59,173 bases of DNA from positions 1-59,173 of the forward strand of contig JAISSQ010000115.1 in assembly GCA_031273045.1 (NCBI GenBank), read 5' to 3'. The position numbers and the translations under genes were made by a program. This DNA comes from Puniceicoccales bacterium (lineage in GTDB: Bacteria; Verrucomicrobiota; Verrucomicrobiia; Opitutales; UBA953). Under the pieces are notes generated by a model that had not been told where the DNA came from, did no database searches, and was given only the letters and a program-made list of their open reading frames with translations. This document shows, in pieces, positions 20,299-57,409 of this stretch. Position 1 is the stretch's first letter, and every line of letters begins with the position of its first letter.

Positions 20299-20727
20299 AG
20301 GGAAGGTTGAAGGTTGAAGGAGGAAGGATGGGAAGAAAGGATGAAGGATGAAGGATGAAGGATGAAGGATAAGGGATAAGGGATAAGGGCAAAGGGATAA
20401 GGGTAGTTTCCTGCGGCGTAGCCGCGCACTCTACCCTTTGCCCTTTGCCCTCATCCCTTTGCCCTTTTTTCATGGAGCGCCGCACACTGGGAGCGCCGAC
20501 TTTCAAGTCGGCTCGCCCCCTCCATGCGGCGCAGACGCCACTCTTTAAAAGAAGCAAGGCGGCTACGCCGCAGCACCCCCAAGCCGACTTGAAAGTCGGC
20601 GCTCCATCCCTCACCCTTCGCCTCCTTCATCCCTCATCCTTCCTCCTTCATCCTTCCTCCTTCATCCTTTCTTTCCATCCCTCATCCTTCATCCCTCATC
20701 CTTCATCCTTTCTTTTCATCCTTTCTT
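20299..20727. repeat. Composite heptamer-armed palindromic repeat element (intergenic)
   Basis: A purine-rich 7-nt tandem array (AAGGATG/AGGGATA/AGGGCAA) spans 20299-20406. A loop TTTCCTGCGGCGTAGCCGCGCACT follows, with a complementary arm CTACCCTTTGCCCTTTGCCC at 20431-20464. A perfect 23-bp inverted pair GGAGCGCCGACTTTCAAGTCGGC lies at 20490-20512 and 20583-20605, each half itself a hairpin. A pyrimidine-rich mirror array (CCTTCAT)n spans 20614-20727. Confidence 0.8.
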
Positions 20728-22285: not shown

Positions 22286-22930
22286 ATGTTCGCATTTCTC
22301 AAAAAAATTCTCGGCCGTGATGACAAGTTTTTCGTCCTGCTTGACGCCAGCGCGCAGCAGGCGCTCGAAAGCGCGAAACTGCTCCTGCGGCTCCATGCGG
22401 CAATCGGCGACGAGCAAGCGTTCAACAAGGCGCGCTCCGACCTCTCCCAGTCGCGCCGCATGGACAAGCGCATCGCCACCGACATCATCGCCGCCCTGTG
22501 CAACACCTTCGTGACCCCGTTTGAGCGCGAAGACATCGAGGCGCTCGCCAGCGCGCTCTACAAAATCCCCAAGGTCGCCGAGAAAATCGGCGAGCGCATC
22601 GCCATCTCGCCCAAGAAATTCGCCGCCGAATTCGTCGCCCGCCAACTCCAAATGCTCGAAAAGGCCGCCGGCGGCGTCGTGCGCATGACCGCCATGCTGC
22701 GCGCCATCGGCGACATGGAAAAAATCAAGCAGGCCTACGAGGAGATTCAGGCAATCGAAGGCGAGGCGGACAAACTCATGCTCGGCACGCTGCACGACCT
22801 CTACAACGGCACGCTCGACGCCAAGGACGTGCTCATTCTCACCGACATTCACGAGCACCTCGAACGCTCCATTGACCTGTGCCGCGACGCCGGAAAGGTC
22901 ATCTTCCAAGTTGCGCTCAAACATGCGTAG
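22286..22930 (+). CDS. DUF47 / PhoU-like phosphate transport regulator family protein
   Basis: MFAFLKKILGRDDKFFVLLDASAQ..FVTPFEREDIEALASALYKIPKVAEKI..IQAIEGEADKLM..DVLILTDIHEHLERSIDLCRDA is a typical TIGR00153/DUF47 pattern. It has the usual partnership with a downstream PiT transporter. The internal ATG at 22286 was chosen over the track start at 22121. Confidence 0.8.
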   Translation: MFAFLKKILGRDDKFFVLLDASAQQALESAKLLLRLHAAIGDEQAFNKARSDLSQSRRMDKRIATDIIAALCNTFVTPFEREDIEALASALYKIPKVAEKIGERIAISPKKFAAEFVARQLQMLEKAAGGVVRMTAMLRAIGDMEKIKQAYEEIQAIEGEADKLMLGTLHDLYNGTLDAKDVLILTDIHEHLERSIDLCRDAGKVIFQVALKHA

Positions 22931-22988
22931 GAAAGGATGAAGGATGAAGGATGAAAAATGGAGAATGACGAATGGAGGATGAAAACGG
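22930..22988. repeat. Purine-rich heptamer array (left flank of four-helix-bundle cassette)
   Basis: GGAAAGGATGAAGGATGAAGGATGAAAAATGGAGAATGACGAATGGAGGATGAAAACGG. It is the inverse complement of the array at 23441-23518. Confidence 0.85.
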
Positions 22989-23027
22989 CTTTGATGCCTT
23001 TCAAATGACCCTTACCCCTCTCCGCTT

Positions 23028-23435
23028 ATGAGCACCTCGGCACTTGATTTGAAAACACGCACGCGCGATTTCGCGTTGCGCGTCATCCGCCTGTATTCGT
23101 CCCTGCCCAAGGGAGATGCCGTGGCGCAGGTGCTCGGCAAGCAGATGCTCCGTTCCGCAACCTCGGTTGGCGCGAATTACCGCGAGGGTTGCCGCGGGCG
23201 TTCCGACGCCGAGTTTGTCGCCAAACTCGGCGAAAGTTTGAAGGAGTTGGAGGAGACGCAGTATTGGTTTGAACTCCTCACCGGCGCCGACTGCGTCGCC
23301 GCTCCGCAGATGACCGTGCTCGCTGACGAAGCCGGACAACTCACCGCCATCCTCACCTCCATAGTCAAGGCGCGCCGCACCGCGCGAAGCGCGCAAACGT
23401 CGCGGATTGACACCGCCACCGCAACCACCGCCTAA
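23028..23435 (+). CDS. Four-helix-bundle protein (23S rRNA intervening-sequence protein family)
   Basis: DLKTRTRDFALRVIRLYSSLPK..VAQVLGKQMLRSATSVGANYREGCRGRSDAEFVAKLGESLKELEETQYWFELL matches the family hallmark (SxGANxxEG, EF..KL.I..KE..ET.YW). Confidence 0.85.
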   Translation: MSTSALDLKTRTRDFALRVIRLYSSLPKGDAVAQVLGKQMLRSATSVGANYREGCRGRSDAEFVAKLGESLKELEETQYWFELLTGADCVAAPQMTVLADEAGQLTAILTSIVKARRTARSAQTSRIDTATATTA

Positions 23436-23440
23436 CCGCC

Positions 23441-23518
23441 CCCTCAACCTTCATCCTTCATCCTTCAACCTTCATCCTTCCCCTTCAACCTTCATCCTTC
23501 CTCCTTCATCCTTCCCCC
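23441..23518. repeat. Pyrimidine-rich heptamer array (right flank of four-helix-bundle cassette)
   Basis: CCCTCAACCTTCATCCTTCATCCTTCAACCTTCATCC... runs up to 2 nt before the pit ATG and is complementary to 22930-22988. Confidence 0.85.
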
Positions 23519-25857: not shown

Positions 25858-25983
<126 letters not shown>

Positions 25984-26792: not shown

Positions 26793-28076
26793 TTAGTGGG
26801 TGGTGAGGAGGGTGGGTGATGGGGAGGTGGTGGTGACGGGGGTGAGGTAGCGGGCGTAGTGGGCGCGGGCGACGGCGGGGGTGTTGCGGAGGGCGGCGGC
26901 GGCGGCTTCGATGCTGCCGGTGGCGGTAAGGACTTCGCTGCCGTAGAGTTTGCGGAGGTTGTAGGTGGTCTTGCTGCCGGTCTTGCCGAGATGGGTCTGA
27001 ACGAGGTGGCTGATGCGGCGATAGACGAGGTCGTGGGCGGGGGTGTGCGCGGCGCGGGAGGGATGCTGGGGGTAGAGGAGGTAGTGGGTCGGGGGGATGT
27101 CGGCGAGGATGGTGAGGAGGTGGTGGGCGAGGTCGGGGGAGACGGCGATGCGGGTCTCGCGTTCGCCGTGGCGTTTGAAGGCGAAGTCGTCGCGGTTGCG
27201 GAGGACGAGGTGGAGGATGGGCACGGGAGAGCCGCTTCGCTCCATAGTGGTCAGTGGTCGGTGGTCAGTGGTCAGTGAATTTTCCCACTCGTCCAACTCG
27301 AACCAGTTGGCGCGGAGGTGGAGGGCTTCGCGGTTGCGGAGGCCGAAGTGGCGGAAGAGGAGGTAGGCGATGTGGAGTTGGCGGTCGTCGGGGGTGCCGT
27401 GCCAGAGTGCCCAGCCGGCGGTGTCGAGGGCGCGGAGGGCGTCGGGTGAGGGGGCGGCGAAGGCGGGCGTGGAGGCGGGGAGTAGGGGGGCGCGGAGGAA
27501 GCCGGTGAGGGTGGCTTCGTCGAGGGTGGCGCCGTGTCGGTAGTAGTAGTCGAGGGCGGAGCGGGAGAAGAGGGAGCGGACGAAGCGGAGGGTGGAGTTG
27601 ATGGTGTTGGCGCGGGCGGCGCGGGCGGCGGGGGTTAGGTCGCGTGTGGCGGCGAGGCGGTAGCGTTCGGCGGTGGCGCGGTCGGGGGCGCAGGGGGCGG
27701 AGCGGTCGGTGCCGATGAGGGCGAGGTAGCGGTCGAGGGCGTGGAGGTTGGCTCGCCATGTGGTGGGGGCGATGTCGCCGGAGCGGGCGCGTTCGGCGGC
27801 GTAGGCGGCGTAGAGGTCGGCGATTTGGGCGTAGGTGGAGAGGGCGGCGGTGGTGCCGGTGTTTGTGCCGGCGTGAACGCCGGGGCTGGAACCGGCGCGG
27901 GCGGCGGTGGAGTGTCCGCCGCGCAGGGTGCCGGCGCGGGCGGCGAGGTGGAGTGCGCGGGCGGCGGCGAGGGCTTCGCGGCGGTCGGCGGTGCCGGTGG
28001 AGAGGGAGTGGTAGGTGCCGCAGACGCGGAAGCGGACGAACCAGTTTCGGGAGTTTGGCTTTTTGAGGAGTTGCAT
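26793..28076 (-). CDS. int: Tyrosine recombinase / phage integrase
   Basis: 427 aa. It has an N-terminal SAM-like region, FGLRNREALHLRANW (catalytic Arg box), and C-terminal YNLRKLYGSEV..LRNTPAVARAHYARY (His/Arg/Tyr region). It lies adjacent to attL. It carries an odd in-frame heptamer insert at 27246-27280. Confidence 0.88.
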   Translation of the reverse strand: MQLLKKPNSRNWFVRFRVCGTYHSLSTGTADRREALAAARALHLAARAGTLRGGHSTAARAGSSPGVHAGTNTGTTAALSTYAQIADLYAAYAAERARSGDIAPTTWRANLHALDRYLALIGTDRSAPCAPDRATAERYRLAATRDLTPAARAARANTINSTLRFVRSLFSRSALDYYYRHGATLDEATLTGFLRAPLLPASTPAFAAPSPDALRALDTAGWALWHGTPDDRQLHIAYLLFRHFGLRNREALHLRANWFELDEWENSLTTDHRPLTTMERSGSPVPILHLVLRNRDDFAFKRHGERETRIAVSPDLAHHLLTILADIPPTHYLLYPQHPSRAAHTPAHDLVYRRISHLVQTHLGKTGSKTTYNLRKLYGSEVLTATGSIEAAAAALRNTPAVARAHYARYLTPVTTTSPSPTLLTTH

Positions 28077-30064: not shown

Positions 30065-30106
30065 CAGAAAGGATGAAGGATAAGGGATAAGGGATAAGGG
30101 TAGCAA

Positions 30107-39053: not shown

Positions 39054-40127
39054 ATGAGCACCACAGCACATCCCTCTCCCGCCGCGCAGCCGCCGGCACC
39101 GGCCGCCGCAATCCCGCCCGCGCCCGCCGCGCCCGCCAAGGACATCACCTCCGTCCCCGCCCTCTCCCGCGCCTTCCTCGAAGCCGCCGCCGACCTCGAC
39201 CCCGCCGCCTCCGGCGAAAGTGCTGTGCCGCCCGTTCACGGGCAGGAAGCCGCGCCCGCAGCCACCACTACCGCCACCACCGAGCCACCCACCACCGGCG
39301 AGAGTGCTGTGCCGCCCGTTCACGGGCGGGATGCTGACCCACTCGCCGACCTCGCTCTCCCCTCCGACTCGACCCCCGCCGCCGGAACCACCTCCACCGA
39401 GCCACCCGCCACCACCGAGCCGCCCACCACCGCCGCAAGTGCTGTGCCGCCCGTTCACGGGCGGGATGCCGCGCCCGCCGCCGCCGCCGCCGCCGACCTC
39501 GCCCCCGAAATCGCCGCCGCGGACTACAAGACCCTCGCCCAGGTGCAGGCCTCCGCCGAGCAATGGCTCGACCGCATCGCCGACGTGCTCGCCGGCGATG
39601 GCGACCCCATCAAGGCCGCCGACGGCACCGACATCCCGGACGAGAAACTCAAGGCGTGGCGCGACCAACTCCGCGACACCCTGCGGCGCCAAATCCCCGC
39701 CCGCCTCGGGCAACTCTCCGCAGCCGCCGCCGCCGAACGCGCCCGCACTGCCGCCGCCGAGCACGCCGCAAAGACATTCCCCGCCTACGCCGACGCCAAA
39801 TCCGCCGAGCGCAAGTGGGCGGATGCCTTCCTCGCCGCGCCCGAAAACGCCGCCCTCGCCGCGCATCCGCGCGGCGCCACCCTCGCGCTGCTCATCCGCC
39901 TCGGTCAGAAGGCCTACGCCGCCCAAGCCGCCGCCCAAGCCAGTTCCAGCGCCGGCGGTCACGCCGCCCAAGCCGCCGCCAATCCCAACCTCCCAACGTC
40001 CACCCCCGCCGCCGGCGCCGCAGCCACCGCCGCCGCCAAGCCCGCCAGCCGCACAGCAGCGAAAATGCGCGCCGCCGGAATCACCGACACAAACGCCCTC
40101 GCGACCTACTTCGCCGAGGTTGCGTAG
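39054..40127 (+). CDS. Capsid scaffolding-like protein (three 27-nt hairpin repeats in the N-terminal linker)
   Basis: Ala/Gln/Glu-rich predicted coiled-coil protein immediately upstream of the major capsid gene. 357 aa. Confidence 0.6.
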   Translation: MSTTAHPSPAAQPPAPAAAIPPAPAAPAKDITSVPALSRAFLEAAADLDPAASGESAVPPVHGQEAAPAATTTATTEPPTTGESAVPPVHGRDADPLADLALPSDSTPAAGTTSTEPPATTEPPTTAASAVPPVHGRDAAPAAAAAADLAPEIAAADYKTLAQVQASAEQWLDRIADVLAGDGDPIKAADGTDIPDEKLKAWRDQLRDTLRRQIPARLGQLSAAAAAERARTAAAEHAAKTFPAYADAKSAERKWADAFLAAPENAALAAHPRGATLALLIRLGQKAYAAQAAAQASSSAGGHAAQAAANPNLPTSTPAAGAAATAAAKPASRTAAKMRAAGITDTNALATYFAEVA

Positions 40128-41605: not shown

Positions 41606-41610
41606 ATTCA

Positions 41611-41644
41611 CTGACCACTGACCACCGACCACTGACCACTGACA
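41611..41644 (+). repeat. CTGACCA heptamer array (5 units)
   Basis: CTGACCA CTGACCA CCGACCA CTGACCA CTGACA. The stretch 41606-41640 is the exact reverse complement of 27246-27280 inside int. Confidence 0.9.
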
Positions 41645-42607
41645 ATGCTCCGCCACGCTGAAAACAACTGGATTACTTTCGCGTTCGCCGGCGCCGCCGG
41701 CGGAACCGTCTCCCAATTTCTCAAGAGCGGATTGGAGTGGGTGGTGCTCATCGGAAGCGCCATCTCTGCGCTCGCCGGCGCTGTTCTCGCCGTCGCCAAA
41801 ATCTACCGCAAGTTTCGCGCGTGGCGCATCGCCGCGCGTCTCGCCACCTCCACCGGTGGCACAATTTCGACAGGAGCAGAAGCCGAGAAGTTTTTACCGA
41901 GGTTTTCTTCTCGTGGCATTCCGGCGGAAAGCAAGTGGTCCGCCCCTGTCGTCCTTTTCATCTGCGCAATACTATCCTCCGGTTGCGCAGGGTGCTCCTA
42001 CCTGCACGACGTCCCACCCACTAAAGGCGGCACCTACACCGTCGAGACGTGGGGGATTGGCAGTGCACAGGAACAAGGGCAAAGGGATAAGGGCAAAGGG
42101 CAAAGGGCAGAAAGCGCACCTCTAAAGCGGGAGACCTTCACCCAAGGTGACAACGCCACCGGTCGCGCACGCTTCACGCGCGCTCCCGATGGCGCGGTAA
42201 CCCTCTCCCTCTCCGCGAACGCGCCCAACGCCGTCACCATTCCGCCCGTCCCCGACTACACCAAATACATCGCCCTCGTCGTCTCGCTGATGCTCGCTGC
42301 GCTCGGCGCCGCGCTCTGCGGATACGGCTACGCCGGCGTCGGCTCGCGTCTCTTCCTTGCCGGCGCCGGCGGTGCCGTCCTCTCCCTCACAGTCACCGAC
42401 TACGGCTGGCTCTATGCAGCAGCCGCTGTCGCCATCGGCCTCTACGTAGCATGGGAGAAGTTGCGCGCCTACGCCGCCGGCGTGAGCGAGAGCAGCGAGC
42501 CGGACACGTGGCTCGACCGCCTCGTCGGCGCCGCGAACGGCGCCTCCGCCTCCACCGCCTCCACCGCCGCCCCCACCGCCTCCGCGCCACTGACCACCGA
42601 AACATAA
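41645..42607 (+). CDS. Multi-TM membrane protein with internal lipobox (possible holin/spanin-like lysis function)
   Basis: TM segments include WITFAFAGAAGG and WVVLIGSAISALAGAVLAVA. An internal VVLFICAILSSGCAGC lipobox-like string and C-terminal TM helices (IALVVSLMLAALGAALCGYGYAG..) are present. It carries the in-frame 51-nt GGGCAAA element. Confidence 0.55.
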   Translation: MLRHAENNWITFAFAGAAGGTVSQFLKSGLEWVVLIGSAISALAGAVLAVAKIYRKFRAWRIAARLATSTGGTISTGAEAEKFLPRFSSRGIPAESKWSAPVVLFICAILSSGCAGCSYLHDVPPTKGGTYTVETWGIGSAQEQGQRDKGKGQRAESAPLKRETFTQGDNATGRARFTRAPDGAVTLSLSANAPNAVTIPPVPDYTKYIALVVSLMLAALGAALCGYGYAGVGSRLFLAGAGGAVLSLTVTDYGWLYAAAAVAIGLYVAWEKLRAYAAGVSESSEPDTWLDRLVGAANGASASTASTAAPTASAPLTTET

Positions 42608-42705
42608 TTTGCCGCCGCTGCCGGGGAATGCTCGCGAGTTGCATGTGGTCATGTCTGCGAGAACCGGCGCGGCGGCTCCTATTTCCAGCACCAACCTCGC
42701 CTCCC

Positions 42706-45700
42706 ATGTCCGCGCCCTCACTCACACAGTCCGACGAATACCAGCGCGAACTCGCGCGCCAGCGCACCTTCCGCGAGATGTGGCAGAACGGCGTGCCAGC
42801 CGGCTCGCGTGTCGGAATCCCGCTCCCCGACGGCACCACCGAAATCACCGACCTCCCCTCGCCACCGCCGGAATTCGCCACCGACCACCAGCCAATGGAC
42901 ACTGGCCACTTGGAGCGAAGCGGCTCTCCGGACCCGCGCGACCTCTTCGGTCTCACCGGCGGCGGAACCCTCCGCGACCCGGTCGCCGACCACCGCGCCC
43001 GCTACGCCGACCTCACCGACGACCAATACCGCGCGCGGATGGAGTCGCAGGACGCGACCATCGCCCACTCCATCGCCAACCGCGCCGCGACCGGAGTGAC
43101 CGGCGCGCTCATCGGAATCGGGCGGAAGGTCCTGCCCGTCCTCGCCACCCCGCTCGACGCCGTCGCGCCCGGCACCTCGGACGCCATCCGTCTCCGCTAC
43201 GACGACGCCCGACGCGAACTCGACGACCTCAAGACCGCCCATGCGCCCTACTCGCAACTCTCGCCGTTCTGGGGAGACACCGTCGAGGGCGTCGCCGACA
43301 GCATGACCAAGATGCTCGCCCTGCGCGCCGCCGGCGGCGGAATGAAGACGATGGCGACCGGCTTCGGTATCGACGCCGCCACCGACGCCTACGAGCGCGG
43401 CCGGCAGGACGGTCTCGACCACAACCGCGCGCTGCTCTACGGAGCGGCTCACGGCGCAGCCGAAGCCGGCGTGATGTCCATCTTCGACCGCCTTGGTCTC
43501 GGCGGCGCCGAGCGCGCCGTCATCGACGCCTTCGGTGCCTCCGCTGCCGCCGGCGTCCGAACCGTCAAGGACGTGCTCAAGGCCGCCGCCAAGCAAACCA
43601 TTCTTGGTGAGGTGCCGGAGGAACTCGTCACTTCCGCCGTGCAGAAAATCGCCGACGACATCGCCCTCAACGACAGCAGCACGTGGGAGGAAACCATCAA
43701 AAGCACTCTCGCACAGACGCTGCTCACCATGGGCATCGTCAACGCCAAGCCCACCGGCGCCGCCGCCCTCAACGACCTCATCAGAAAGGTTGAAGGAGGA
43801 AGGATGAAGGATGAAACAGCAAGTGGTGCCACAGGGGGCGGCACCGCCGCCGCCGGCACCGCCGCCGCCGGAACAACCGCTGCCGCCCCAGCCGGCACCG
43901 CAAGTGCTGTGCCGCCCATGCATGGTCGGTCCCCTGCCTCCCCTACCGCCGGCTACGATATCCTCCGCCCAAACGCCGCAGCAGCCACTCCCGCCACTCC
44001 CGCCGCGCCCGCCGCGCCCGCGCCCAATCCAGTTCCAGCGCCGGCGTTCACGCCGGCACAAACACCGGCACCACCGCCGCCACCCACCACCACCACACCC
44101 ACCACCGCCTCTGACCGCGCCGCCCAGCAGCCCGCGCCACCGGCACCGCCGCGCGCCGCCAATCCCATCACAGTCACTTGGGACCAATCTAAACTCTCCG
44201 ACGAAGAGAAGACCGCGCAGAACCAATTCATCTCCGAACTCAACGCGCGAACCGATGAGGAGAACGACGCGCTCTACGACGCCGCCGCAAAAGACGGAAA
44301 CCACACCGGTGTCTATATCAACGCCGACACGGCACGCTCACTGTTCAGCGGATGGAAAGACAGCGACGCAAACCGCCGGAAGTGGAAGGACGATGTCACC
44401 TACCAAGTCGCCGCCGCCTATGTCGCCAATCGCTTCCGCCGAGAGTTGGAGCGGACAAAAGGGCGAGGCAGCGTCACCTTCCTCGCCGGCGGTGCCGGTA
44501 GCGGCAAGGGAAGCGCGAACGTCAAGGGAACAGACGCCGACATCGTCTTCGACTCAAACTTCGCCGGCAGTCAGAACCCTGACGGCACACTCAACTTCGA
44601 GAAGCAGGAAGCCCTCATCGCCGCCGCCCGCGCAGCCGGAAAGAGAGTCAGTATTATCTACGTCCACGTGCCTATAGAACAGGCAGCGGCACAAGCGCAC
44701 TCACGGTTTGAAAAAACTGGACGAGACGTTGAGCCGGAGCACCAAGGAGGTCTCCACTACCGAGCGCAACAGACGTTTCTCCATTTTCTCAACTCTTACC
44801 TGAACGGAAATCAAAACCACATTTCCTCTATCAAAATCTATGACAACGGACATCCACTCGGAGAAGGTGTCTGGATAGGACAAGAGGAAGCAAAGAATGT
44901 CCCTGAAAGCGCAGAGAATAACTTCCTCGCTCATGCTGCGCTTGACTTCATGAGTGAACGAGGGAACATCCTTTACCGCGATGAACACGACCCAAAGACA
45001 AGAGCCAGAAACACAAGAAGTGACTTGGCAGGAACTGGAGCGACAGGGGCGGTTTCGCGAAGCCAACGCCCTTCTCCTTCGCCAGATGAACGAGGGAATC
45101 CGCCAGTCGGTGGAACGCCTACAAGCGATGCCGGTGAAGTATCCGCCGGCGAAGTAGCCACAAACCAATCTCCTGATTCACGCGCTAATTCTGTCGACGG
45201 CTCCGCCCTATCGGATCCCGGTATCAGTGGCGGTGAATCAGGAACCACTTCCTCAACTGCGGAAAATTCCGCAAACGAGCAAGACACCACCGCCGCACCC
45301 GCCGAAAGTGCTGTGCCGCCCGTTCACGGGCGGGGCGTCTCAGCCCGTCCGGGCGGCACCCCATCTTCCGATGCGCCGGTGGACTCCCCAAAGTTCACGC
45401 CCGCACCCGCCGGAAAAGTGCCGTGGCTCGACCAGCGAAGCGAAACCCAATCCGGCCGCCAACTGCGCCAGCGAATCGCCGCCGACACCAAGGGCGCCAA
45501 ATACGGCGCGCCATCCGTCTTCACCTACCTGCGAGAACAACTCGGCGGTCTGCTCACCCTCAAATCCCGCAGCCAGACATCACGCAAACACCCCGCCAAC
45601 TACCACCCAGACAGCGACACCATCTTCACCCGCAGCGGCGCCGCCAACGAGGTCAACACGCACGAGGTCGGGCACGCAATCCACGCCCGGCTTACCGAAC

Positions 45701-48700
45701 TCGGCTGGACGTTCCCGCCGAACGTCAACATCCACGACTTCACGCGCCTCGCCAGCAATCGCATGTCCTACGCCTCCGCAGACAACGCGAGCGAAGCCGT
45801 CGCCGAGTGGGTGAGGCGCTACATCAACGACCCGGTCTCCGTTGCCGGACATCCGCTCACCAAATCCATTGAGAATTTCCTGGTCACTCACGACAGCCGC
45901 GGAATCCAAATCATCAACACCCTGCGCGACGCCGCCCGCGCCCAGAACGAGACCTACCGCCGGCCGCTGCTCGCCCAATTCCACGCACTCAACGCCGACC
46001 AATCAACGCCGCAGAAATCGTGGCACGAGACGCTCGCCGCAGTCCCAGGGCAAATGCACTCGCTCATCACTGCGCTCATCTCGCGCGGCCACGCGTGGCG
46101 CGCCCTCGAAGCCCGCGCATTCCGCGCCATCCGACGCGCCGCCGCGAACGACGACCTCGGTCTCGCCGCCGCCCGCGCTTGGCGAGCAGACGCGGGCAAC
46201 TCCCTCGGAAACGCATACCAAGAGACGCTTCTCGCCAAGGGGCAAGTCACCACCGGATTCCTCGGCAAGGGCGGCCTGACGGTCTTCGACGACAAGGGGC
46301 AGAAGGTCGTCGTCCATCCGAAATCCTACGCCGAAATCATCAGCGCGATTCCGGGCGAGCAGTGGCAGGACTTCGAGGCCTACGGATGGGCGCGCACGAT
46401 GCTCGCCCGCTACCGCGCGAAAGCACTCGACTACCCGGGGCGAAACAGCGGATGGGGACCGCAGCGGCTCGCACGGATGGTCAAGGAGGCAGAAGCAGCC
46501 AATCCGACTTGGGGCGAGACCTACAAGCAGGTCGAGTCGCTGATGGACTCGCTGCTCAAACTCGACGTGCGCACAGGTCTCGTGACTGGCGAGGAATACC
46601 AGCGCATCCGCGAGGCCTACGAGGACTACTGGCCGCTGCCGCGACTCATCCGGCGCGACATGGGGCAGACAGGCACGAGCGTCGGCGGCGCCGCCGGCCT
46701 CGAAAGCAAGTCGGGTGTCCATCGCGCCTACGGCAGCGAGGAGGCCGTCCTGTCGCTGCACGAGGCGGTCGAGCGACGGATGTGGGCGAGCGTCAAGGCC
46801 TACGCTCATGAGAAATTCAAGCGGACGCTCGTGAAGACCGTCGCCGACCTCGCCAAGCGCGACGGTCTCGACCGCGAGACGCGCGCGTCGTTCGCCCAAC
46901 TCTTCACGCCTCTGAAGCCCGAAAAAAGCACGGTTGCGAAAATTTCCGCATCTATGCAAGCGGACATCATCGCAAAGGCCGCCAAGGATCTCGGCCTAAC
47001 GGTCACCGACGAGAAGACAGGACAGCGGCGCGCGGTCACCGCCGAGGACATCACCGTGCTCGGTCTCGACGGCATCCCCATCACAAAGACCGACAAGCCG
47101 ACCGACTTCACGGTGATGTCCGTCGCGAACGGCACACCGACACCGGACTTCTATCTCATCACCGACCCTGCGCTACTGTCACTCATCGCCAACAACCCGA
47201 TGCCCAAGGACGGCGCCGCCGAACGCGCCATCGCGTTCGCGAAGAGTATCTTCTCTCCCTACATCCGCGAGATGAAGCAACTGGCGACCCAAAACGCCGC
47301 CTTCATCATCAAGAACGTCGTAGCCGACGCGTTCAACACCATGCTGACCGGGCGCGGAAAGCGGTCATTCCTGCCGTTCGCAAATCACGTCCGGGGAATC
47401 ATCGGCCGGATGCGCGGCGAGACCACCGGCATCGCGACGGACACAGAGATGCTGTCGCACGAACTTTCCGGCGAGACCGACCTCGCCGCCGCAATCAATC
47501 GCTCGGCGTGGGAGGAGATTTGGAAGAGCAACTGGTTCCGCTTGGAGGGTAAACCCAAGTTGCAGCAGGCGGCCGCCATCATCGGGAACATTTTGATGTT
47601 CCCGTTCAAGGTGTCGCACACGGCTCTGGTATTCACGGGGCAACGCGCCGCCGCGACATTCACCGAGGCGCTCGCGCGCGAGGGTGCGGCGCTCAACGAA
47701 CGCGACCGTGGCGGCAGCGCCGCCAGTAGCGCGAAGCAATACGCGCTCTCGTCCGGCGACTTCGGCGAACGCCCGGGAAATGCGACGTGGTCGGAATTCA
47801 CCACGCTGCTGCCATTCTTCAATCCGATGTTGCAGGCAGGTCGCCAAGAGTGGGGCAAACTCACTGACCCGGACCCGGCAGTGCGCCGAGCCACCGCACT
47901 CAAAATCGCCGTCGGCGGTCTCGCGCTGCCAACGCTCGCGTGGGCACTCGCGCGGCTGGTCTTCCCCGATGACGACGAGGAGAAGCGCAAGGCGGCAGAA
48001 CGCGACCCAGCGGAGAAGGCGCGCTGGGCGCAGGTCGGTCCGGTGCGATTCCCGTTCCCGCGCGGCGCGATGGGCGCCGCCGCCGCCACCGTCTGGAACA
48101 CGCTCGACGAGGTGGTGCTCGGAATGAAGACGCGCCAGAAGACCAGATTCGCCAAGGCCGTCCTCGCCGAAGCAGTCACCATCTCCGGCACGTGGTCAGA
48201 CCTCATTCCGTGGGGCGTCAAGCAAGCGGTCGAAGTCGCAAGCAATCACTCGTTCTGGTCGGACAAGCCAATCGTTCCGCTCTACCTCGAACGCCTCTCC
48301 GAGCCGGACTTGCAGGTGCGCGCGGACACGCCTCGCCTCTATCGCTCAATCGCCTCGCTCTTCCACGCCTCGCCGCTCGTGGTCGAGCACATGTTCCGCC
48401 AGACCTACGGCCGCCAACTGTCCTACGCCATTGAGGTCGCAGACAAATTCCTTGCCGGCGAAAACATCGCCAAGACAGCCGGCGCCGGCCGCGCGATGCC
48501 ACTCATCGGCTCGTTCGTGGCGACTGACCCGAAGACGTGGTCGAGCGCATCCGTCCAAGACCTGCAAGAAATTGAAAAGCGATACGACGCGCTCAACGCC
48601 CGGCTGCGCTCGGTCGGCTTCGAGGCCGGTGTCCGGGGACTGCTCACGTGGGACCCGGACAGCGCGCCGTGGCGACTGGGCGAAAGAGAGGTTGCAGACA

Positions 48701-49029
48701 TCACCGCGCTCCAAAATGTCGTTGGTCAGGCATACCGGATGCACGTGATGAGCAACGCCGTCGAGAAACTCGCCACCGAAGCGAGCAAACTCAAGCGCGC
48801 CGGATTCCGCCTCGCTGCCGAAGACGCCGAAAAGCGAATGACCACGCTCGCCATCCGCGTCGCCGCCGACCACTACGACGCCTCCTCCCGCGCCCTCGAC
48901 GAGGCAATGCGCCTCGAAGCGGCGACCCGCGCAACATTCTCCGAACTCTCCGAATTCTCCCGGAACTCCAACGCCACCCGCGAAGAGCAGGAACGCCAGC
49001 GAGAAAAAAGGATGAAGGATGAAGGATAA
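42706..49029 (+). CDS. Giant phage polyvalent-type protein (2,107 aa): zeta-toxin-like P-loop kinase + HExxH metallopeptidase-like + long helical C-terminal modules
   Basis: The Walker A FLAGGAGSGKGS (about 44478-44513) sits in a ~200-aa zeta/AAA_33-like region. NTHEVGHAIHARL has its HExxH at 45661-45675. About 1,100 aa of helical region follow. The start MSAPSLTQ at 42706 was chosen, since the upstream track sequence is R-rich junk. Confidence 0.7.
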   Translation: MSAPSLTQSDEYQRELARQRTFREMWQNGVPAGSRVGIPLPDGTTEITDLPSPPPEFATDHQPMDTGHLERSGSPDPRDLFGLTGGGTLRDPVADHRARYADLTDDQYRARMESQDATIAHSIANRAATGVTGALIGIGRKVLPVLATPLDAVAPGTSDAIRLRYDDARRELDDLKTAHAPYSQLSPFWGDTVEGVADSMTKMLALRAAGGGMKTMATGFGIDAATDAYERGRQDGLDHNRALLYGAAHGAAEAGVMSIFDRLGLGGAERAVIDAFGASAAAGVRTVKDVLKAAAKQTILGEVPEELVTSAVQKIADDIALNDSSTWEETIKSTLAQTLLTMGIVNAKPTGAAALNDLIRKVEGGRMKDETASGATGGGTAAAGTAAAGTTAAAPAGTASAVPPMHGRSPASPTAGYDILRPNAAAATPATPAAPAAPAPNPVPAPAFTPAQTPAPPPPPTTTTPTTASDRAAQQPAPPAPPRAANPITVTWDQSKLSDEEKTAQNQFISELNARTDEENDALYDAAAKDGNHTGVYINADTARSLFSGWKDSDANRRKWKDDVTYQVAAAYVANRFRRELERTKGRGSVTFLAGGAGSGKGSANVKGTDADIVFDSNFAGSQNPDGTLNFEKQEALIAAARAAGKRVSIIYVHVPIEQAAAQAHSRFEKTGRDVEPEHQGGLHYRAQQTFLHFLNSYLNGNQNHISSIKIYDNGHPLGEGVWIGQEEAKNVPESAENNFLAHAALDFMSERGNILYRDEHDPKTRARNTRSDLAGTGATGAVSRSQRPSPSPDERGNPPVGGTPTSDAGEVSAGEVATNQSPDSRANSVDGSALSDPGISGGESGTTSSTAENSANEQDTTAAPAESAVPPVHGRGVSARPGGTPSSDAPVDSPKFTPAPAGKVPWLDQRSETQSGRQLRQRIAADTKGAKYGAPSVFTYLREQLGGLLTLKSRSQTSRKHPANYHPDSDTIFTRSGAANEVNTHEVGHAIHARLTELGWTFPPNVNIHDFTRLASNRMSYASADNASEAVAEWVRRYINDPVSVAGHPLTKSIENFLVTHDSRGIQIINTLRDAARAQNETYRRPLLAQFHALNADQSTPQKSWHETLAAVPGQMHSLITALISRGHAWRALEARAFRAIRRAAANDDLGLAAARAWRADAGNSLGNAYQETLLAKGQVTTGFLGKGGLTVFDDKGQKVVVHPKSYAEIISAIPGEQWQDFEAYGWARTMLARYRAKALDYPGRNSGWGPQRLARMVKEAEAANPTWGETYKQVESLMDSLLKLDVRTGLVTGEEYQRIREAYEDYWPLPRLIRRDMGQTGTSVGGAAGLESKSGVHRAYGSEEAVLSLHEAVERRMWASVKAYAHEKFKRTLVKTVADLAKRDGLDRETRASFAQLFTPLKPEKSTVAKISASMQADIIAKAAKDLGLTVTDEKTGQRRAVTAEDITVLGLDGIPITKTDKPTDFTVMSVANGTPTPDFYLITDPALLSLIANNPMPKDGAAERAIAFAKSIFSPYIREMKQLATQNAAFIIKNVVADAFNTMLTGRGKRSFLPFANHVRGIIGRMRGETTGIATDTEMLSHELSGETDLAAAINRSAWEEIWKSNWFRLEGKPKLQQAAAIIGNILMFPFKVSHTALVFTGQRAAATFTEALAREGAALNERDRGGSAASSAKQYALSSGDFGERPGNATWSEFTTLLPFFNPMLQAGRQEWGKLTDPDPAVRRATALKIAVGGLALPTLAWALARLVFPDDDEEKRKAAERDPAEKARWAQVGPVRFPFPRGAMGAAAATVWNTLDEVVLGMKTRQKTRFAKAVLAEAVTISGTWSDLIPWGVKQAVEVASNHSFWSDKPIVPLYLERLSEPDLQVRADTPRLYRSIASLFHASPLVVEHMFRQTYGRQLSYAIEVADKFLAGENIAKTAGAGRAMPLIGSFVATDPKTWSSASVQDLQEIEKRYDALNARLRSVGFEAGVRGLLTWDPDSAPWRLGEREVADITALQNVVGQAYRMHVMSNAVEKLATEASKLKRAGFRLAAEDAEKRMTTLAIRVAADHYDASSRALDEAMRLEAATRATFSELSEFSRNSNATREEQERQREKRMKDEG

Positions 49030-49126
49030 GGGATGAAATGCGTTCCAAGTGCTGTGCGCCCATTCGCGAGTGCTGTGCCGCCCATTCATGGGCGGAAGGC
49101 GCCGCCCATGGAGCGCCGACTTGCGT

Positions 49127-49162
49127 TTCGCGAACTGCGCATTCACGCAATACTATCGCCAC
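49127..49162 (+). promoter_or_regulatory. Conserved phage promoter module TTCGCG-N18-TACTAT-N6-ATG (copy 2)
   Basis: TTCGCG at 49127-49132, TACTAT at 49151-49156, ATG at 49163. Confidence 0.55.
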
Positions 49163-49906
49163 ATGAGCACGCGCTTCGTGAAGAAACCCGCGACAGTCGC
49201 CGGCGCGACAGGACCGCAAGGCCCGCAAGGACCGCAAGGCCCGCAAGGACCCCAAGGCGAAACCGGACCGCAAGGACCGCAAGGACCCCAAGGACCCCAA
49301 GGCGAAACCGGACCGCAAGGACCCCAAGGACCCCAAGGCGAAACCGGACCGCAAGGACCCCAAGGCGAACCGGGCACCGGTTCCGGCAGCGGCGCCGGCC
49401 TCCTCTACAAATCCATCTTCCTCACCGAGGAATGGACTGACGCGAATCAATACGCTCTAACCGGTCAGTGGGCGGCCGAATGGGAGGCGGAGGACTGGGT
49501 GCCGGAGATCGTCTGGGATCTCGATGGCGTCATGCTGAACTCGCGTGCCTACGCGCTACGCATTGACGGTCCGTCGCCAAAGTGGGGTTCGTTTCTCATA
49601 GATAATTACGGCGGAAATGGCCGAAACATGAATCTGCCGGCCCATGCGTCCACGAATCGTGTGATGGACCGAACGTACGACATCAACGCCCCCCAAGGTT
49701 CGGTCTCTGCGAACGACCAGACCAACTACTATCGGTCGCTGCAAGACAAGTGGTGCGACATTCTGTGCCCATCCCTCGGCAAATTGCTGCGCATCCACAT
49801 CGTTCGCGACTATTGGTCGCCGCTGTCATATTGCGTCCCGTCCAGCAACGTGACACGCCCGCACACGGCAGCACGCCTCGAATTCTTCAACGTGGAGGTC
49901 CGCTAA
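49163..49906 (+). CDS. Collagen-like (G-X-Y) repeat fibre protein
   Basis: [40 protein letters not shown]...[12 protein letters not shown] gives about 21 uninterrupted GXY triplets (49199-49390), followed by a ~170-aa globular C-terminus. Confidence 0.8.
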
Positions 49907-49907
49907 T

Positions 49908-52088
49908 ATGAACCAAACCACCGCCGGCGCGCTCACGCCCGCCACAATCCCTGCCTACTTCGCCTCCGTCGAGGGCGGCTCAACGGCGTGGCAATCACGC
50001 ACACGCGAAAACATTCGCACGCGCTATTGCGTCTGGCCCGGGCAATCTCCCGATGGACGCAAGCGCGGTTCGCGCACCGGGAACGCAAAGCCGTGGGAAG
50101 GCGCGAGCGACCAGCGCACATTCATCGTGGACGGTCTCATCGCCTCGGATGCCGCGATGCTCACCGTCGCCCTCGCCCGCGCGAACGTGGACGCCGTGCC
50201 CGTCGCTGGCGACGACATCGAGCGCGCCTCGCTCGTGTCGCGCTTCACCCGCTGGCTCTTGCAGCGCGGGATTCCGCACTTCTTTACCGAGGCCAAAATC
50301 CTCGCCAACACCGTCCTCACCCACGGCGTCGGCGTGATGAGCATCGCGTGGCGCCGCGAGGTCATCCACCAGCCAATCCGCCTCGCTCGTAGTGAGATTT
50401 TGAGAATGGGAAATAGTTCGGAGGAACAAGGGCAAAAGGATGAGGGCAAAGGGCAAAGGGCAGAAAGCGCACCGGACCTTATCCCTTCCACGTGGAGCAC
50501 CGACCCCTCCGGCGACTTTCTATCCGCCATAGACGACCCAGCCCGCGAAGCCGAAGCGCGCGCGCTGCTTTCGCTCGCATTCCCCGATGCGACGACCGCC
50601 GAACTCACCGCCGCTGTCCGCGACCTCCGCCCACGCGATGGCGTCGCCGACCCAACCGCCACGCTCTACCGCGCAGAGGAGGTCGCCAACCAACCGACCG
50701 TCCGCGCCCTCACAGTCGGCACCGACATCTTCTTCCCGCCGGAGACGGACGACCTCGAACAAGCACCGGCTGTCTTCGAGGTGCAATGGCTCACGCGCGA
50801 AGAACTCGAAGCGCGGCGCGACGACCAGAATTGGGACGCCGAGTGGACCGAGCGCGTCATCGCCACCGCGCTCAAGACGCCCGACCTCCGCGACGACGAT
50901 GCCGCGCGGCTCCTCGCCTCGCCCGGGAGCGAGACGCTCAAGGCGCGCGTCATCTGCGCTTACTACCGCTCACGCGACGAGCACACCGGGCGCGCGCAGA
51001 CGCGCTACTGCGTCTTTGCAGCCGACGCGCCCGACGCCGGCTGCGCGCTCGACGAGGTCTTCGCCTACACGCACAGTCGCTACCCCTACGTCGTCTTTAC
51101 GCGCGACCGCGAGACGCGGCGCATCTTGGAAAGCCGCGGGATGGCGGAAATCGGTCAATCGGCGCAGGATGAGATCAAACTCCAGCGCGACGGCCGCGCC
51201 GACCACACCGAACTCGCTCACCTCCCGCCTCTCTACCATCCGCTCGACGGCGCGCCGGCGGCGTGGGGACCGATGGCTTTTGTGCCGCGCCGCCGCGGCG
51301 ACCAAACCCCCTATGAATACGTCAAGGTGCCGCCGCCGCCGGCAGGCAGCATAGAGGTCGAGCAGACACTGCTCGCCAATCTCGACAAGCGGTTCGGAAA
51401 CGCCGGCGCCGATGGCGAGGGAGGCCGCGCGTGGCTCAAACAGGAGTTGGTCAACGAGTGGCTGCGCAGCATGGCGCAGGTCGCCGCTCACGCATTCGCC
51501 TTGTGGAATGCCTACGGCCCGGAGGACATCTTCTTCCGCGTCGTGGGCGACGAGTCGCGCTCGCCGGCGCGCCTTGTGCGCGGTAGCAAGCAGGAGCGCT
51601 ACGACTTCTTCCTCTCGTTCACCGTTGACCTCCTCGACCCGAAGTCCGCCGAGACACGACTCAATAAGCTTGGCGAGGCGCTCGCCCGCTACGACCGCCA
51701 AGGTCTCGTGAATTGGGGCGCATTCCTGCGCATGCTCGCGAACACCTACGACCCGGCGACCGCCGACAAACTCATCATGTCGCGCGACGACGCCGCCGAG
51801 CAGGAATTCGCGCGAGCCAAGCAGGACCTGACCCAAATCTGGGCAGGCATGGATGTGGATTTCCCCGACATCGGACGCGACCCGGACACCGCCGCCCAAG
51901 TCCTGCAAGAGTATCTCGCCGGCAGCGAGCAAATCCCGGCCAACGACGTGCAGACACGATTCGCGAACGACGAGGCGTTCCGCGCCCGCCTCGAGAAATA
52001 CCAGAAGCAAATCCGCTTCCAGCAACAGCAGCACGAGAACGCGCAGACAGGCCGCCTCGGCGCCGCCGCCGGAAACATGTCCGAGTGA
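49908..52088 (+). CDS. Putative portal protein
   Basis: 726 aa. The N-terminal RYCVWPGQSPDGRKR...KPWEGASDQRTFIVDGLI pattern is recalled from podovirus-type portals, and the size fits. It carries the in-frame 51-nt GGGCAAA element. Confidence 0.6.
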   Translation: MNQTTAGALTPATIPAYFASVEGGSTAWQSRTRENIRTRYCVWPGQSPDGRKRGSRTGNAKPWEGASDQRTFIVDGLIASDAAMLTVALARANVDAVPVAGDDIERASLVSRFTRWLLQRGIPHFFTEAKILANTVLTHGVGVMSIAWRREVIHQPIRLARSEILRMGNSSEEQGQKDEGKGQRAESAPDLIPSTWSTDPSGDFLSAIDDPAREAEARALLSLAFPDATTAELTAAVRDLRPRDGVADPTATLYRAEEVANQPTVRALTVGTDIFFPPETDDLEQAPAVFEVQWLTREELEARRDDQNWDAEWTERVIATALKTPDLRDDDAARLLASPGSETLKARVICAYYRSRDEHTGRAQTRYCVFAADAPDAGCALDEVFAYTHSRYPYVVFTRDRETRRILESRGMAEIGQSAQDEIKLQRDGRADHTELAHLPPLYHPLDGAPAAWGPMAFVPRRRGDQTPYEYVKVPPPPAGSIEVEQTLLANLDKRFGNAGADGEGGRAWLKQELVNEWLRSMAQVAAHAFALWNAYGPEDIFFRVVGDESRSPARLVRGSKQERYDFFLSFTVDLLDPKSAETRLNKLGEALARYDRQGLVNWGAFLRMLANTYDPATADKLIMSRDDAAEQEFARAKQDLTQIWAGMDVDFPDIGRDPDTAAQVLQEYLAGSEQIPANDVQTRFANDEAFRARLEKYQKQIRFQQQQHENAQTGRLGAAAGNMSE

Positions 52089-52178
52089 AGGAAGAAGGAT
52101 AAGGGATAAGGGTAGTTTCCGGCGGCAAAGCCGTGCATTCCACCCTTATCCCTTTGCTCTTTGCCCTTTGCCTTCTCC
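52087..52178. repeat. Heptamer-armed stem-loop element (same family as 20299-20464)
   Basis: The arm GAAGGAAGAAGGATAAGGGATAAGGGTAG is followed by the loop TTTCCGGCGGCAAAGCCGTGCATTC and the arm CACCCTTATCCCTTTGCTCTTTGCCCTTTGCC. The loop is about 75% identical to the loop at 20407-20430. Confidence 0.8.
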
Positions 52179-57052: not shown

Positions 57053-57115
57053 CAGTGACCAGTGACCAGTGGCCAGTGGTCAGTGGCCAGTGGTTAGTGG
57101 TTAGTGGTCAGTGCC
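57053..57115 (+). repeat. Nine tandem heptamers CAGTGAC/CAGTGGC/CAGTGGT/TAGTGGT
   Basis: Exact 7-nt periodicity from 57053. Related (T/C)AGTCAGTGCCGGAAG units follow to about 57180. The array lies between the last phage gene and attR. Confidence 0.85.

Positions 57116-57321: not shown

Positions 57322-57409
<88 letters not shown>

Follow-up and report, generated by a model that had tools for sequence, protein, structure and literature searches.

The 59,173-nt stretch of DNA analysed here (the window: contig JAISSQ010000115.1 of assembly GCA_031273045.1, positions 1 to 59,173) is an entire contig of a 3.1-Mb metagenome-assembled genome (MAG; 247 contigs, 84% complete) of a Puniceicoccales bacterium, and the sequencing runs that hold it are labelled as termite gut metagenome. 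It carries a prophage of ~31.5 kb, integrated at a tRNA-Lys gene (25858-25933) and delimited by a direct repeat identical at 88 of 88 positions (attL, 25896-25983, which overlaps the tRNA gene, and attR, 57322-57409). The prophage encodes an integrase, called from a reading of its translation and without a match in Pfam, together with a T4-type terminase large subunit, a DnaB-like helicase, an SU10-type major capsid protein, a collagen-like protein and a 2192-aa polyvalent protein with a zeta-toxin-like segment. Two further genes on the forward strand, a portal gene (49908-52088; 726 aa, P0002) and a membrane- or lipoprotein-like open reading frame (ORF; 41645-42607; 320 aa, P0001), share a block of 51 nt. 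This block is the G-rich arm and loop start of a 140-210-nt palindromic mosaic element with heptamer-array arms, which is dispersed through the bacterial chromosome and which, in our assessment, is probably selfish DNA that has also colonised the prophage.

The two copies of the block (42070-42120 and 50423-50473) are identical at 49 of 51 bases. Each is read in the frame of its own ORF, as ..SAQEQGQRDKGKGQRAESAP.. / ..GSAQEQGQRDKGKGQRAESAP.. in the membrane protein and as ..SSEEQGQKDEGKGQRAESAP.. / ..NSSEEQGQKDEGKGQRAESAP.. in the portal protein, and a BLASTP comparison of the two proteins returned a 21-residue block as their sole similarity. A preliminary description of this DNA, made from the sequence alone, had reported such a block in one shared frame of two otherwise unrelated proteins, and the sequence, the ORF frames and BLASTP all bear it out. 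Heptamer arrays are prone to slippage and common in this lineage, which could suggest that both blocks arose independently by local slippage. However, the identity includes the non-repetitive flanks (GGAACAA.. and ..CAGAAAGCGCACC) and reaches 53/53 with chromosomal copies, and none of 100 dinucleotide-preserving shuffles produced a match. The identity beyond the tandem part practically rules convergence out, and we give it next to no credence. A diversity-generating retroelement, with template and variable repeats (TR/VR), was also considered and rejected: one difference is G>A and the other the opposite, A>G, at least 11 copies are present genome-wide, and no reverse transcriptase was seen among the prophage ORFs scanned.

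Gapped alignment to the 190-nt chromosomal copy in the LigA gene extends the element-derived stretches beyond 51 nt, to 72 nt in the membrane-protein ORF and 86 nt in the portal gene. The former (42051-42122, forward strand) corresponds to positions 30-97 of the LigA copy and comprises the left arm and the start of the loop. The latter (50402-50487, forward strand) spans element positions 16-124, interrupted by three internal gaps, and has lost most of the loop and second arm, retaining a CCTTATCCCTT remnant of that arm. Both lie in frame in their ORFs, both keep the G-rich arm and end in the hairpin tip (..GCGCACC), and RNA folding finds a hairpin in neither (z +0.55 for the portal copy, +0.66 for the membrane-protein copy). 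The membrane-protein copy is 53/53 identical to a chromosomal copy on contig C8, while the two variant bases of the portal copy are both present in another chromosomal copy (C63:2395-2560). Conversion between the two phage genes, which had been named at the outset as an origin that would speak against insertion, was not found: since each phage copy has its own best chromosomal match, the data suggest that the two came from separate chromosomal sources and were not copied one from the other.

In its full form the element has the order (GGGGAGC)n, GAGATAGTGCGG, (GGGCAAA/GGGATAA)n, loop, (CCCTTAT/CCCTTTG)n, CCGCACTTCC, (GCTCCCC)n, the left arm reading GGAACAA(GGGCAAA/GGGATAA)nGGGCAGAAAGCGC in detail and the loop being of one of two kinds, A (ACCTCCGCCGCAGGAAAC) or the longer B. 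The elements are mosaics: next to one and the same GGGCAAA arm stand at least three alternatives, namely loop A, loop B and a AGCCGCTTCGCTCC module. Terminal inverted repeats are present, namely an outer GGGGAG(A/G)(T/A)AGTGCGGCGG and its complement in addition to the heptamer arms, and a full 190-nt copy folds as RNA into a near-perfect hairpin (-122.7 kcal/mol, z -9.4). A search of the genome found the 3' 32 bases of the block in 11 copies (at most 3 mismatches) on 10 contigs, with no hit for the reversed control; the 190-nt copy used as a BLAST query gave 90 matches, and ~23 sites hold the GGGCAAA core. Within the window, the host portion outside the prophage has an intergenic hairpin copy (20367-20471) enclosed by larger AAGGATG/TCATCCT arrays (20302-20721), and a short complete hairpin copy with heptamer arms and loop (52097-52174) begins 9 nt past the stop codon of the portal gene.

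The portal assignment rests on a fold search, because Pfam, PHROGs and PDB sequence-profile searches returned no match. An AlphaFold2 model built from 14 sequences (predicted local distance difference test score, pLDDT, 72; predicted template modelling score, pTM, 0.63) retrieved in Foldseek the portals of N4 (E 3e-17), Pa223, SU10, P22 and T7, and by this model the protein is a portal of the N4/SU10/P22 fold. The portal family comprises 1160 representatives, and related portals occur in MAGs of Chthoniobacteraceae, Terrimicrobiaceae, Lentisphaerota and Kiritimatiellia. The homologue closest to the portal protein, P0004, comes from another metagenome and shares 49% identity with it; it is without 17+5 residues at the insert, and its contig carries no such heptamer arrays. 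In an alignment of 32 portals the site falls in a loop that is hypervariable in length and unrelated in sequence among homologues; a homologous segment at this position was looked for in other portals and not found, the distant ones having unrelated sequence of variable length there. The element encodes portal residues ~166-194, and the model has pLDDT <50 at residues 170-199. Mapped on the predicted structure, as had been proposed, the insert is thereby placed in a permissive loop predicted to be disordered.

For the membrane protein the comparison with orthologues, which supports an insertion in the portal, has no counterpart. The protein has no homologue among 5.8 billion proteins and no Pfam or PHROG match, and tblastn against related phage loci gave nothing significant; the case for insertion therefore rests here on the 53/53 identity to chromosomal copies. 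The reading frame is supported by the GC content at third codon positions, which is that of coding sequence in the 41645 frame both before and after the block. The protein has hydrophobic segments in its N- and C-terminal parts and, between them, a lipobox-like LSSGC; the element lies ~25 residues past the lipobox. The lipobox-like signal (..VVLFICAILSSGC.., window 41945-42000, residues ~100-118) stands in the middle of the ORF, which may represent two overlapping lysis-type genes or a unimolecular spanin-like protein.

Chromosomal copies place the two phage inserts in a wider pattern. Twenty-two element sites in this MAG were read from individually retrieved loci, and at 18 of them a single ORF stays open through the element; three are intergenic (20367-20471 and 52097-52174, which are the two hairpin copies of the window, and a third on contig C153). 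Hence 18 of the 19 genic copies are in frame and free of stops. The element is usually read as ..EQGQRDKGKGQRAESAP.. / ..GERGAGSGERGDSAEEQGQRDKGKGQRAESAPPPQETTLIPLPSSLIPSAALPPRSPLPAPRS.., the same frame as in both phage genes, and each of the other two frames of the complete element in the same orientation contains a stop (TAA in GGGATAA, TAG in GAGATAGTG); we ascribe the uniform reading frame to selection against these stops. The contention of the preliminary description that a repeat family common to chromosome and prophage keeps the frame in coding DNA holds up across these sites, and what has to be revised is its label as a simple repeat, the block being the arm of a composite palindrome and the phage copies half-elements.

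Most of the genic cases are supported by Pfam, either through two domains of one protein that flank the element or through one domain match that spans it. The element lies between HHH_2 and BRCT in LigA (the HhH/BRCT linker), between Mur_ligase_M and Mur_ligase_C in MurF, between both domains of a DUF4011/AAA_11 helicase, of a UPF0004/Radical_SAM methylthiotransferase and of a BcrAD/DUF2229 protein, and between the N- and C-terminal domains of a thiamine pyrophosphate (TPP) enzyme. MetH carries two elements, one between Pterin_bind and B12-binding_2 and another before Met_synt_B12. In a squalene/phytoene synthase the insert falls within the SQS_PSY domain, in ArgS within DALR, and in an MFS transporter (MFS_1) in the central loop. 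For GH20 and GH106 proteins a domain match was obtained on the upstream side only, in UvrA the element lies between the ABC signature and Walker B as judged from the translation, and the remaining genic cases are long ORFs without two-sided Pfam support. Where a position can be related to the fold, as in the portal loop, the LigA linker, the interdomain linkers of MetH and the central loop of the MFS transporter, it is compatible with it.

That nearly all copies share one frame, and with it one peptide, could also be taken to mean that the block is a peptide module with a shared binding or localisation motif, acquired for its function and not as selfish DNA; the portal wing and a periplasmic segment plausibly face other components. 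Against this, LigA, MurF, MetH, UvrA, ArgS and the MFS loop carry the same peptide without having a common partner, the stops in the other frames account for the choice of frame, and the encoded region is predicted to be disordered. Identity holds at the DNA level (53/53, without synonymous drift) and the unit is palindromic DNA. We regard a selected peptide as very improbable.

Some of these genes hold further material of a similar kind. LigA (contig C132) has a second, different low-complexity insert (..TGTGTTGTRATGEEEDLFAGAESSCSGGVHAATTTATATATA.., ORF residues ~338-380) with the 'loop-B' motif GGCGTTCACGCC, while MetH and UvrA contain small additional element-derived segments (..SPLPAPHSP.., ..SPRSPLPAPRS..). 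On contig C238, the first 126 residues of a stop-to-stop frame match LPD3 (large polyvalent protein-associated domain 3; Pfam E 8e-13); this stretch stands directly upstream of MetH in the same open frame and may be part of another mobile element.

Comparison with relatives gives the inserts a direction. The LigA region is present in 9 of 9 same-genus genomes, and in the 8 that were aligned the linker is a short, unrelated stretch of ~10-25 residues, as against 64 element-coded residues here. Likewise, the MetH linkers are empty in all seven same-genus genomes that hold the gene. A DNA search found the element in none of the nine same-genus genomes, and among 31 further relatives five have loose heptamer arrays only, mostly just upstream of start codons. 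Empty orthologous sites, together with the absence of the element from relatives, point to a recent, lineage-specific expansion of the composite element. In public collections, the 27-mer core is absent from IMG/VR and from Joint Genome Institute (JGI) metagenome contigs, and a 24-mer spanning the junction of loop and arm is absent from the JGI metagenome contigs.

Taken together, these observations make it likely, in our judgement, that the block shared by the two phage genes is the arm of a selfish host palindrome comparable to the Rickettsia palindromic elements (RPEs), that copies which keep the frame persist in genes, and that the prophage was colonised by the same repertoire. Copies would arise at new sites, and those that persist in genes would be the ones with a frame-keeping length, read in the sole stop-free frame and situated in a linker or a surface loop. 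Such a copy would be read as a hydrophilic stretch rich in Gly, Glu, Arg, Gln and Lys, followed by a Pro/Leu/Ser-rich, probably disordered one. After colonisation of the prophage by the host-specific repertoire, the portal and membrane-protein copies would have lost the second arm and with it the hairpin. Phage DNA with long palindromes fares poorly in sbcCD+ hosts, and loss of the arm after insertion of a whole palindrome would fit the position of both breakpoints in the hairpin tip, as palindrome instability predicts.

A different mechanism would be an exchange among dispersed heptamer arrays, from chromosome to prophage for instance, by homologous or microhomology-driven recombination or by gene conversion, in which case the 51-mer would be a conversion tract and no discrete, transposition-like insertion would have taken place. 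It fits the mosaic make-up of the elements, with one GGGCAAA arm next to at least three different neighbours, as well as the portal copy, which mixes variants of two chromosomal copies, and the finding of neither a target-site duplication nor a transposase (no transposase search was made). Conversion would need a seed, and the empty sites (the LigA and MetH linkers and a spacer between DUF47 and PiT genes described below) are without a heptamer array that could serve as one, as is the corresponding site of the closest portal homologue. We consider this route possible though the less favoured of the two; it concerns the mechanism only and is compatible with the description of the block as the arm of a selfish palindrome.

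Several points weigh against the selfish-palindrome interpretation. Neither a target-site duplication nor a transposase or other machinery for insertion came to light, the junctions read showing no evident direct repeats and no search aimed at transposases having been made. As the membrane protein is without homologues, no version of it with an 'empty' site was seen. The near-identical end point of the two phage copies (..GCGCACC) could mean that one was copied from the other after all, or that they belong to a subfamily of half-elements. Translation of the inserts is deduced from frame and stop-codon constraint and not observed, no RNA run holding the locus having been found. Furthermore, not all genic copies are cleanly read through: in the UxaC gene (glucuronate isomerase; contig C233:1562-1714) the frame changes within the element, and the protein is split exactly there, with Pfam positions 1-172 in one frame and 178-464 in another. 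This split could reflect a pseudogene, an assembly error in a CTCCCCG run, or a recent 7-nt slip resembling phase variation. Finally, Logan contigs (k=31) break inside the repeat, so that the exact junctions depend on the MAG assembly.

The last of these points leads to the question of whether reads were joined or collapsed at a genome-wide repeat, leaving blocks that are unreal or of another length. A MAG of 247 contigs and a multi-copy repeat inside which independent k=31 contigs break make such an artefact conceivable. Yet the sequences to the left and right of the portal copy are homologous, in a single frame, to one portal protein, and ORF 41645 keeps its coding signal before and after its block; in the Logan contigs (two runs, possibly one data set) each flank is joined to its own part of the repeat. 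The block is moreover far shorter than a read pair, and the 18 chromosomal cases are alike, most of them with Pfam domains on both sides. An assembly artefact is accordingly most improbable.

The intact halves that flank the frame-shifted UxaC copy bear on another possibility, namely that the inserts are not translated at all, either because they are cut from the mRNA (an RNase III-type activity might excise the hairpin, for instance) or because ribosomes bypass them. The hairpin of full-length copies is very stable, and the related PF05635 cassettes (below) resemble the intervening sequences (IVSs) of rRNA, which RNase III excises (PMC4990558). Removal would, however, lift the constraint on length and on stops, yet 18 of the 19 genic copies are in frame and stop-free, and the phage copies have no hairpin to be recognised. 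To our knowledge, no bacterial system rejoins mRNA after such a cut. Excision or bypass thus appears highly unlikely compared with translation of selfish palindromes that keep the frame.

The portal and membrane-protein genes are not the only parts of the prophage with host-type sequence. When the window was searched by BLAST against a library of chromosomal element copies, the integrase gene was found to hold, on the reverse strand at 27228-27277, a (CACTGAC)n + ATGGAGCGAAGCGGCTCT module that is read in frame as ..SLTTDHRPLTTMERSGSP.. and matches the right arm of a PF05635 cassette on contig C118 at 90% identity over 51 nt. An intergenic (CACTGAC)5 array just upstream of ORF 41645 (41609-41643) is the exact reverse complement of 27246-27280 within the integrase region. 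The polyvalent protein has four such segments, all on the forward strand. The first is a CTTGGAGCGAAGCGGCTCTC module (42909-42928), read in frame as ..LERSGSP.., the 16-mer core of which (GGAGCGAAGCGGCTCT) has 11 exact copies in the genome, two of them in the prophage, and none for the reversed control. The second is an AAGGTTG/AAGGAGG/AAGGATG array (43786-43815), read in frame as ..VEGGRMKDE... The third is a 'loop-B' module (..GGCGTTCACGCCG.., 44023-44055), read in frame as ..PNPVPAPAFTP.. and 91% identical to a copy on contig C126, and the fourth is an AAGGATG array (49008-49037) that gives the last codons and the stop of the ORF (..RMKDEG*).

Two of these had been singled out in the preliminary description, and both are as reported: the AAGGTTGAAGGAGGAAGGATG sequence at 43786-43806 equals host positions 20310-20330 at 21 of 21 bases, and the polyvalent ORF ends within an AAGGATG array. 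The 'host pseudogene' that was said to end in the same manner (..RKDEG*) did not stand up, being a short reading of an intergenic array where no gene is evident. Other arrays lie outside genes: a GGATAAG/GGGTAG array (30078-30103) begins 14 nt past the stop of the terminase large-subunit gene (terL), and a (CAGTGGY)n heptamer array (57067-57111) lies near the right end of the prophage. Arrays or hairpins are thus found within ~14 nt past the terL and portal stops, and an array supplies the stop of the polyvalent ORF.

In none of the seven genic insertions of the prophage is the frame lost, which argues that the phage genes were under selection after invasion. The prophage makes up ~1% of the assembly and holds 5 of ~34 module copies (3 of ~23 with the GGGCAAA core and 2 of the 11 exact GGAGCGAAGCGGCTCT copies). 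It appears enriched, and we treat this as a lead only, because breaks of contigs at chromosomal repeats may bias the count and inflate the value.

Some heptamer-array hairpins enclose a gene. The genome has three genes for PF05635 (23S-IVS) proteins, each of them between inverted arrays of its own heptamer type, and each type has in-frame relatives in the prophage. The cassette on contig C114, with arms GGGATGA/GGGCAAA..GGGCAGAAGGC, corresponds to the block in the portal and membrane-protein genes; that on C118, with arms (TGGTCAG)n + GGAGCGAAGCGGCTCT, corresponds to the insert in the integrase; and that of the window (22930-23518, forward strand), composed of (AGGATGA)n, the PF05635 gene (23028-23435; Pfam E 2e-19) and (TCATCCT)n, corresponds to the arrays of the polyvalent protein. 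The window cassette lies between a DUF47/PhoU-like gene and a PiT gene, and seven same-genus genomes have at this place the DUF47 stop, a short spacer without heptamer array or PF05635 gene, and the PiT start; the cassette is an insertion. The flanks of the C114 and C118 cassettes, as read, show no sign of an rRNA context.

Among 27 PF05635 loci from this genome and the genomes of 24 relatives, an inverted repeat with a score of at least 13 flanks the gene in 24 and one with a score of at least 20 in 13, whereas none of 54 shifted control positions has a score of at least 13. The arms of these repeats are for the most part purine-rich arrays of short period, with units that vary from copy to copy. 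Across the same order, 28 of 41 genomes hold at least one PF05635 gene, with up to 10 per genome. It is conceivable, though we think it rather doubtful, that heptamer-arm hairpins form a class of mobile elements in which PF05635-bearing 'masters', encoding an Avd-like four-helix bundle, have given rise to ORF-less, non-autonomous derivatives in coding DNA (short hairpins and half-arms, those in the portal, integrase, membrane-protein and polyvalent-protein genes of the phage among them); the window cassette would then be a candidate 'master' form of the AAGGATG heptamer family. The arms of the short element, including GGGCAGAA(A/G)GC, clearly match those of the C114 cassette. Because homology between its loop and the inner ends of that cassette could not be shown, we put this model forward as a hypothesis.

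Among the known systems beside which the element can be set, its nearest functional parallel is with RPEs, palindromes of ~150 bp that lie in frame in many genes (Ogata et al. 2000, Science 290:347, as summarised in PMC10969869 and PMC3184786). The element has in common with them that it is a dispersed palindromic repeat of ~100-200 nt with many copies in frame in unrelated housekeeping genes, that the added peptide falls at positions compatible with the fold, that it has no known transposase and that it is restricted to a lineage. It differs in its host, a high-GC termite-gut bacterium, in arms that are tandem heptamer arrays, in being a mosaic of exchangeable modules, in a larger genic share (18 of the 22 sites examined) and in its copies in structural and integration genes of a prophage. 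We know of no description of RPE copies in prophage genes of these kinds. The full element is a palindrome that folds into a hairpin, which defines the RPE-like class, and the phage half-elements themselves fall outside that definition. Homology to RPE-1 to RPE-10 is unlikely and is not claimed, a judgement made from composition and heptamer architecture and not from a comparison with RPE sequences.

Xanthomonas and Nostoc have arrays of G3N4 heptamers, the GGGNATC repeats, and these are under-represented within coding sequence (Rehm et al. 2015; PMC4692102). The arrays described here share with these and with the cyanobacterial short tandemly repeated repetitive (STRR) sequences the tandem 7-nt G3N4 units, the frequent location just past stops or before starts, a variable copy number and, in principle, the possibility of G-quadruplex formation; their placement at the ends of terL, the portal gene and the polyvalent gene is that reported for the GGGNATC repeats of Xanthomonas. 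Unlike in those systems, the arrays here make up both arms of a long hairpin, and the composite copies are mostly genic and in frame. The cyanobacterial STRR heptamers are reportedly accompanied by nested small dispersed repeats, as described by Mazel in 1990 and Elhai in 2008.

The IVS of the 23S rRNA of Coxiella burnetii has an S23p ORF with variable tandem heptamers next to it and a stem of terminal inverted repeats, and IVSs have been proposed to stem from mobile elements (PMC4990558). The PF05635 cassettes resemble it in carrying their gene in the loop of a long inverted-repeat stem. In contrast, the window cassette stands between protein-coding genes (DUF47/PiT) and not in helix 25 or 45 of 23S rRNA, the stems are heptamer arrays, and short ORF-less derivatives with the same arms occur inside protein-coding genes. 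With MITEs (transposable elements of the miniature inverted-repeat type), repetitive extragenic palindromic (REP) sequences and bacterial interspersed mosaic elements (BIMEs), the element shares the properties of a small, non-autonomous, dispersed hairpin repeat; the mosaic build is that of BIMEs, and occasional in-frame fusions with ORFs are known in these groups. Neither a cognate RAYT (no search aimed at such enzymes was made) nor a GTAG/CGTC REP tag was identified, and the mainly intragenic location is atypical of them.

If our interpretation is correct, this genome provides a second dense case of translated selfish palindromes, outside Rickettsia, in which the polarity of the events is clear from the empty same-genus sites. 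It also means that a temperate phage can bear the mark of its host's repeat repertoire, down to the portal and integrase genes; in-frame inserts could accordingly report a long association between phage and host and help to assign hosts to phages known from metagenomes. Heptamer units within genes bring with them a risk of frame shifts through slippage, as UxaC shows, and the association with PF05635 cassettes makes the role of IVS proteins and of prokaryotic heptamer arrays testable.

The prophage also has low-complexity sequence that is rich in proline. A Pro/Thr-rich phage ORF contains a tandem duplication of 135 nt (1.8 copies; window 39271-39507), and its motif ..AVPP(M/V)HGR.. recurs in the polyvalent protein (window 43839-44110), so that phage ORFs have such segments in common.

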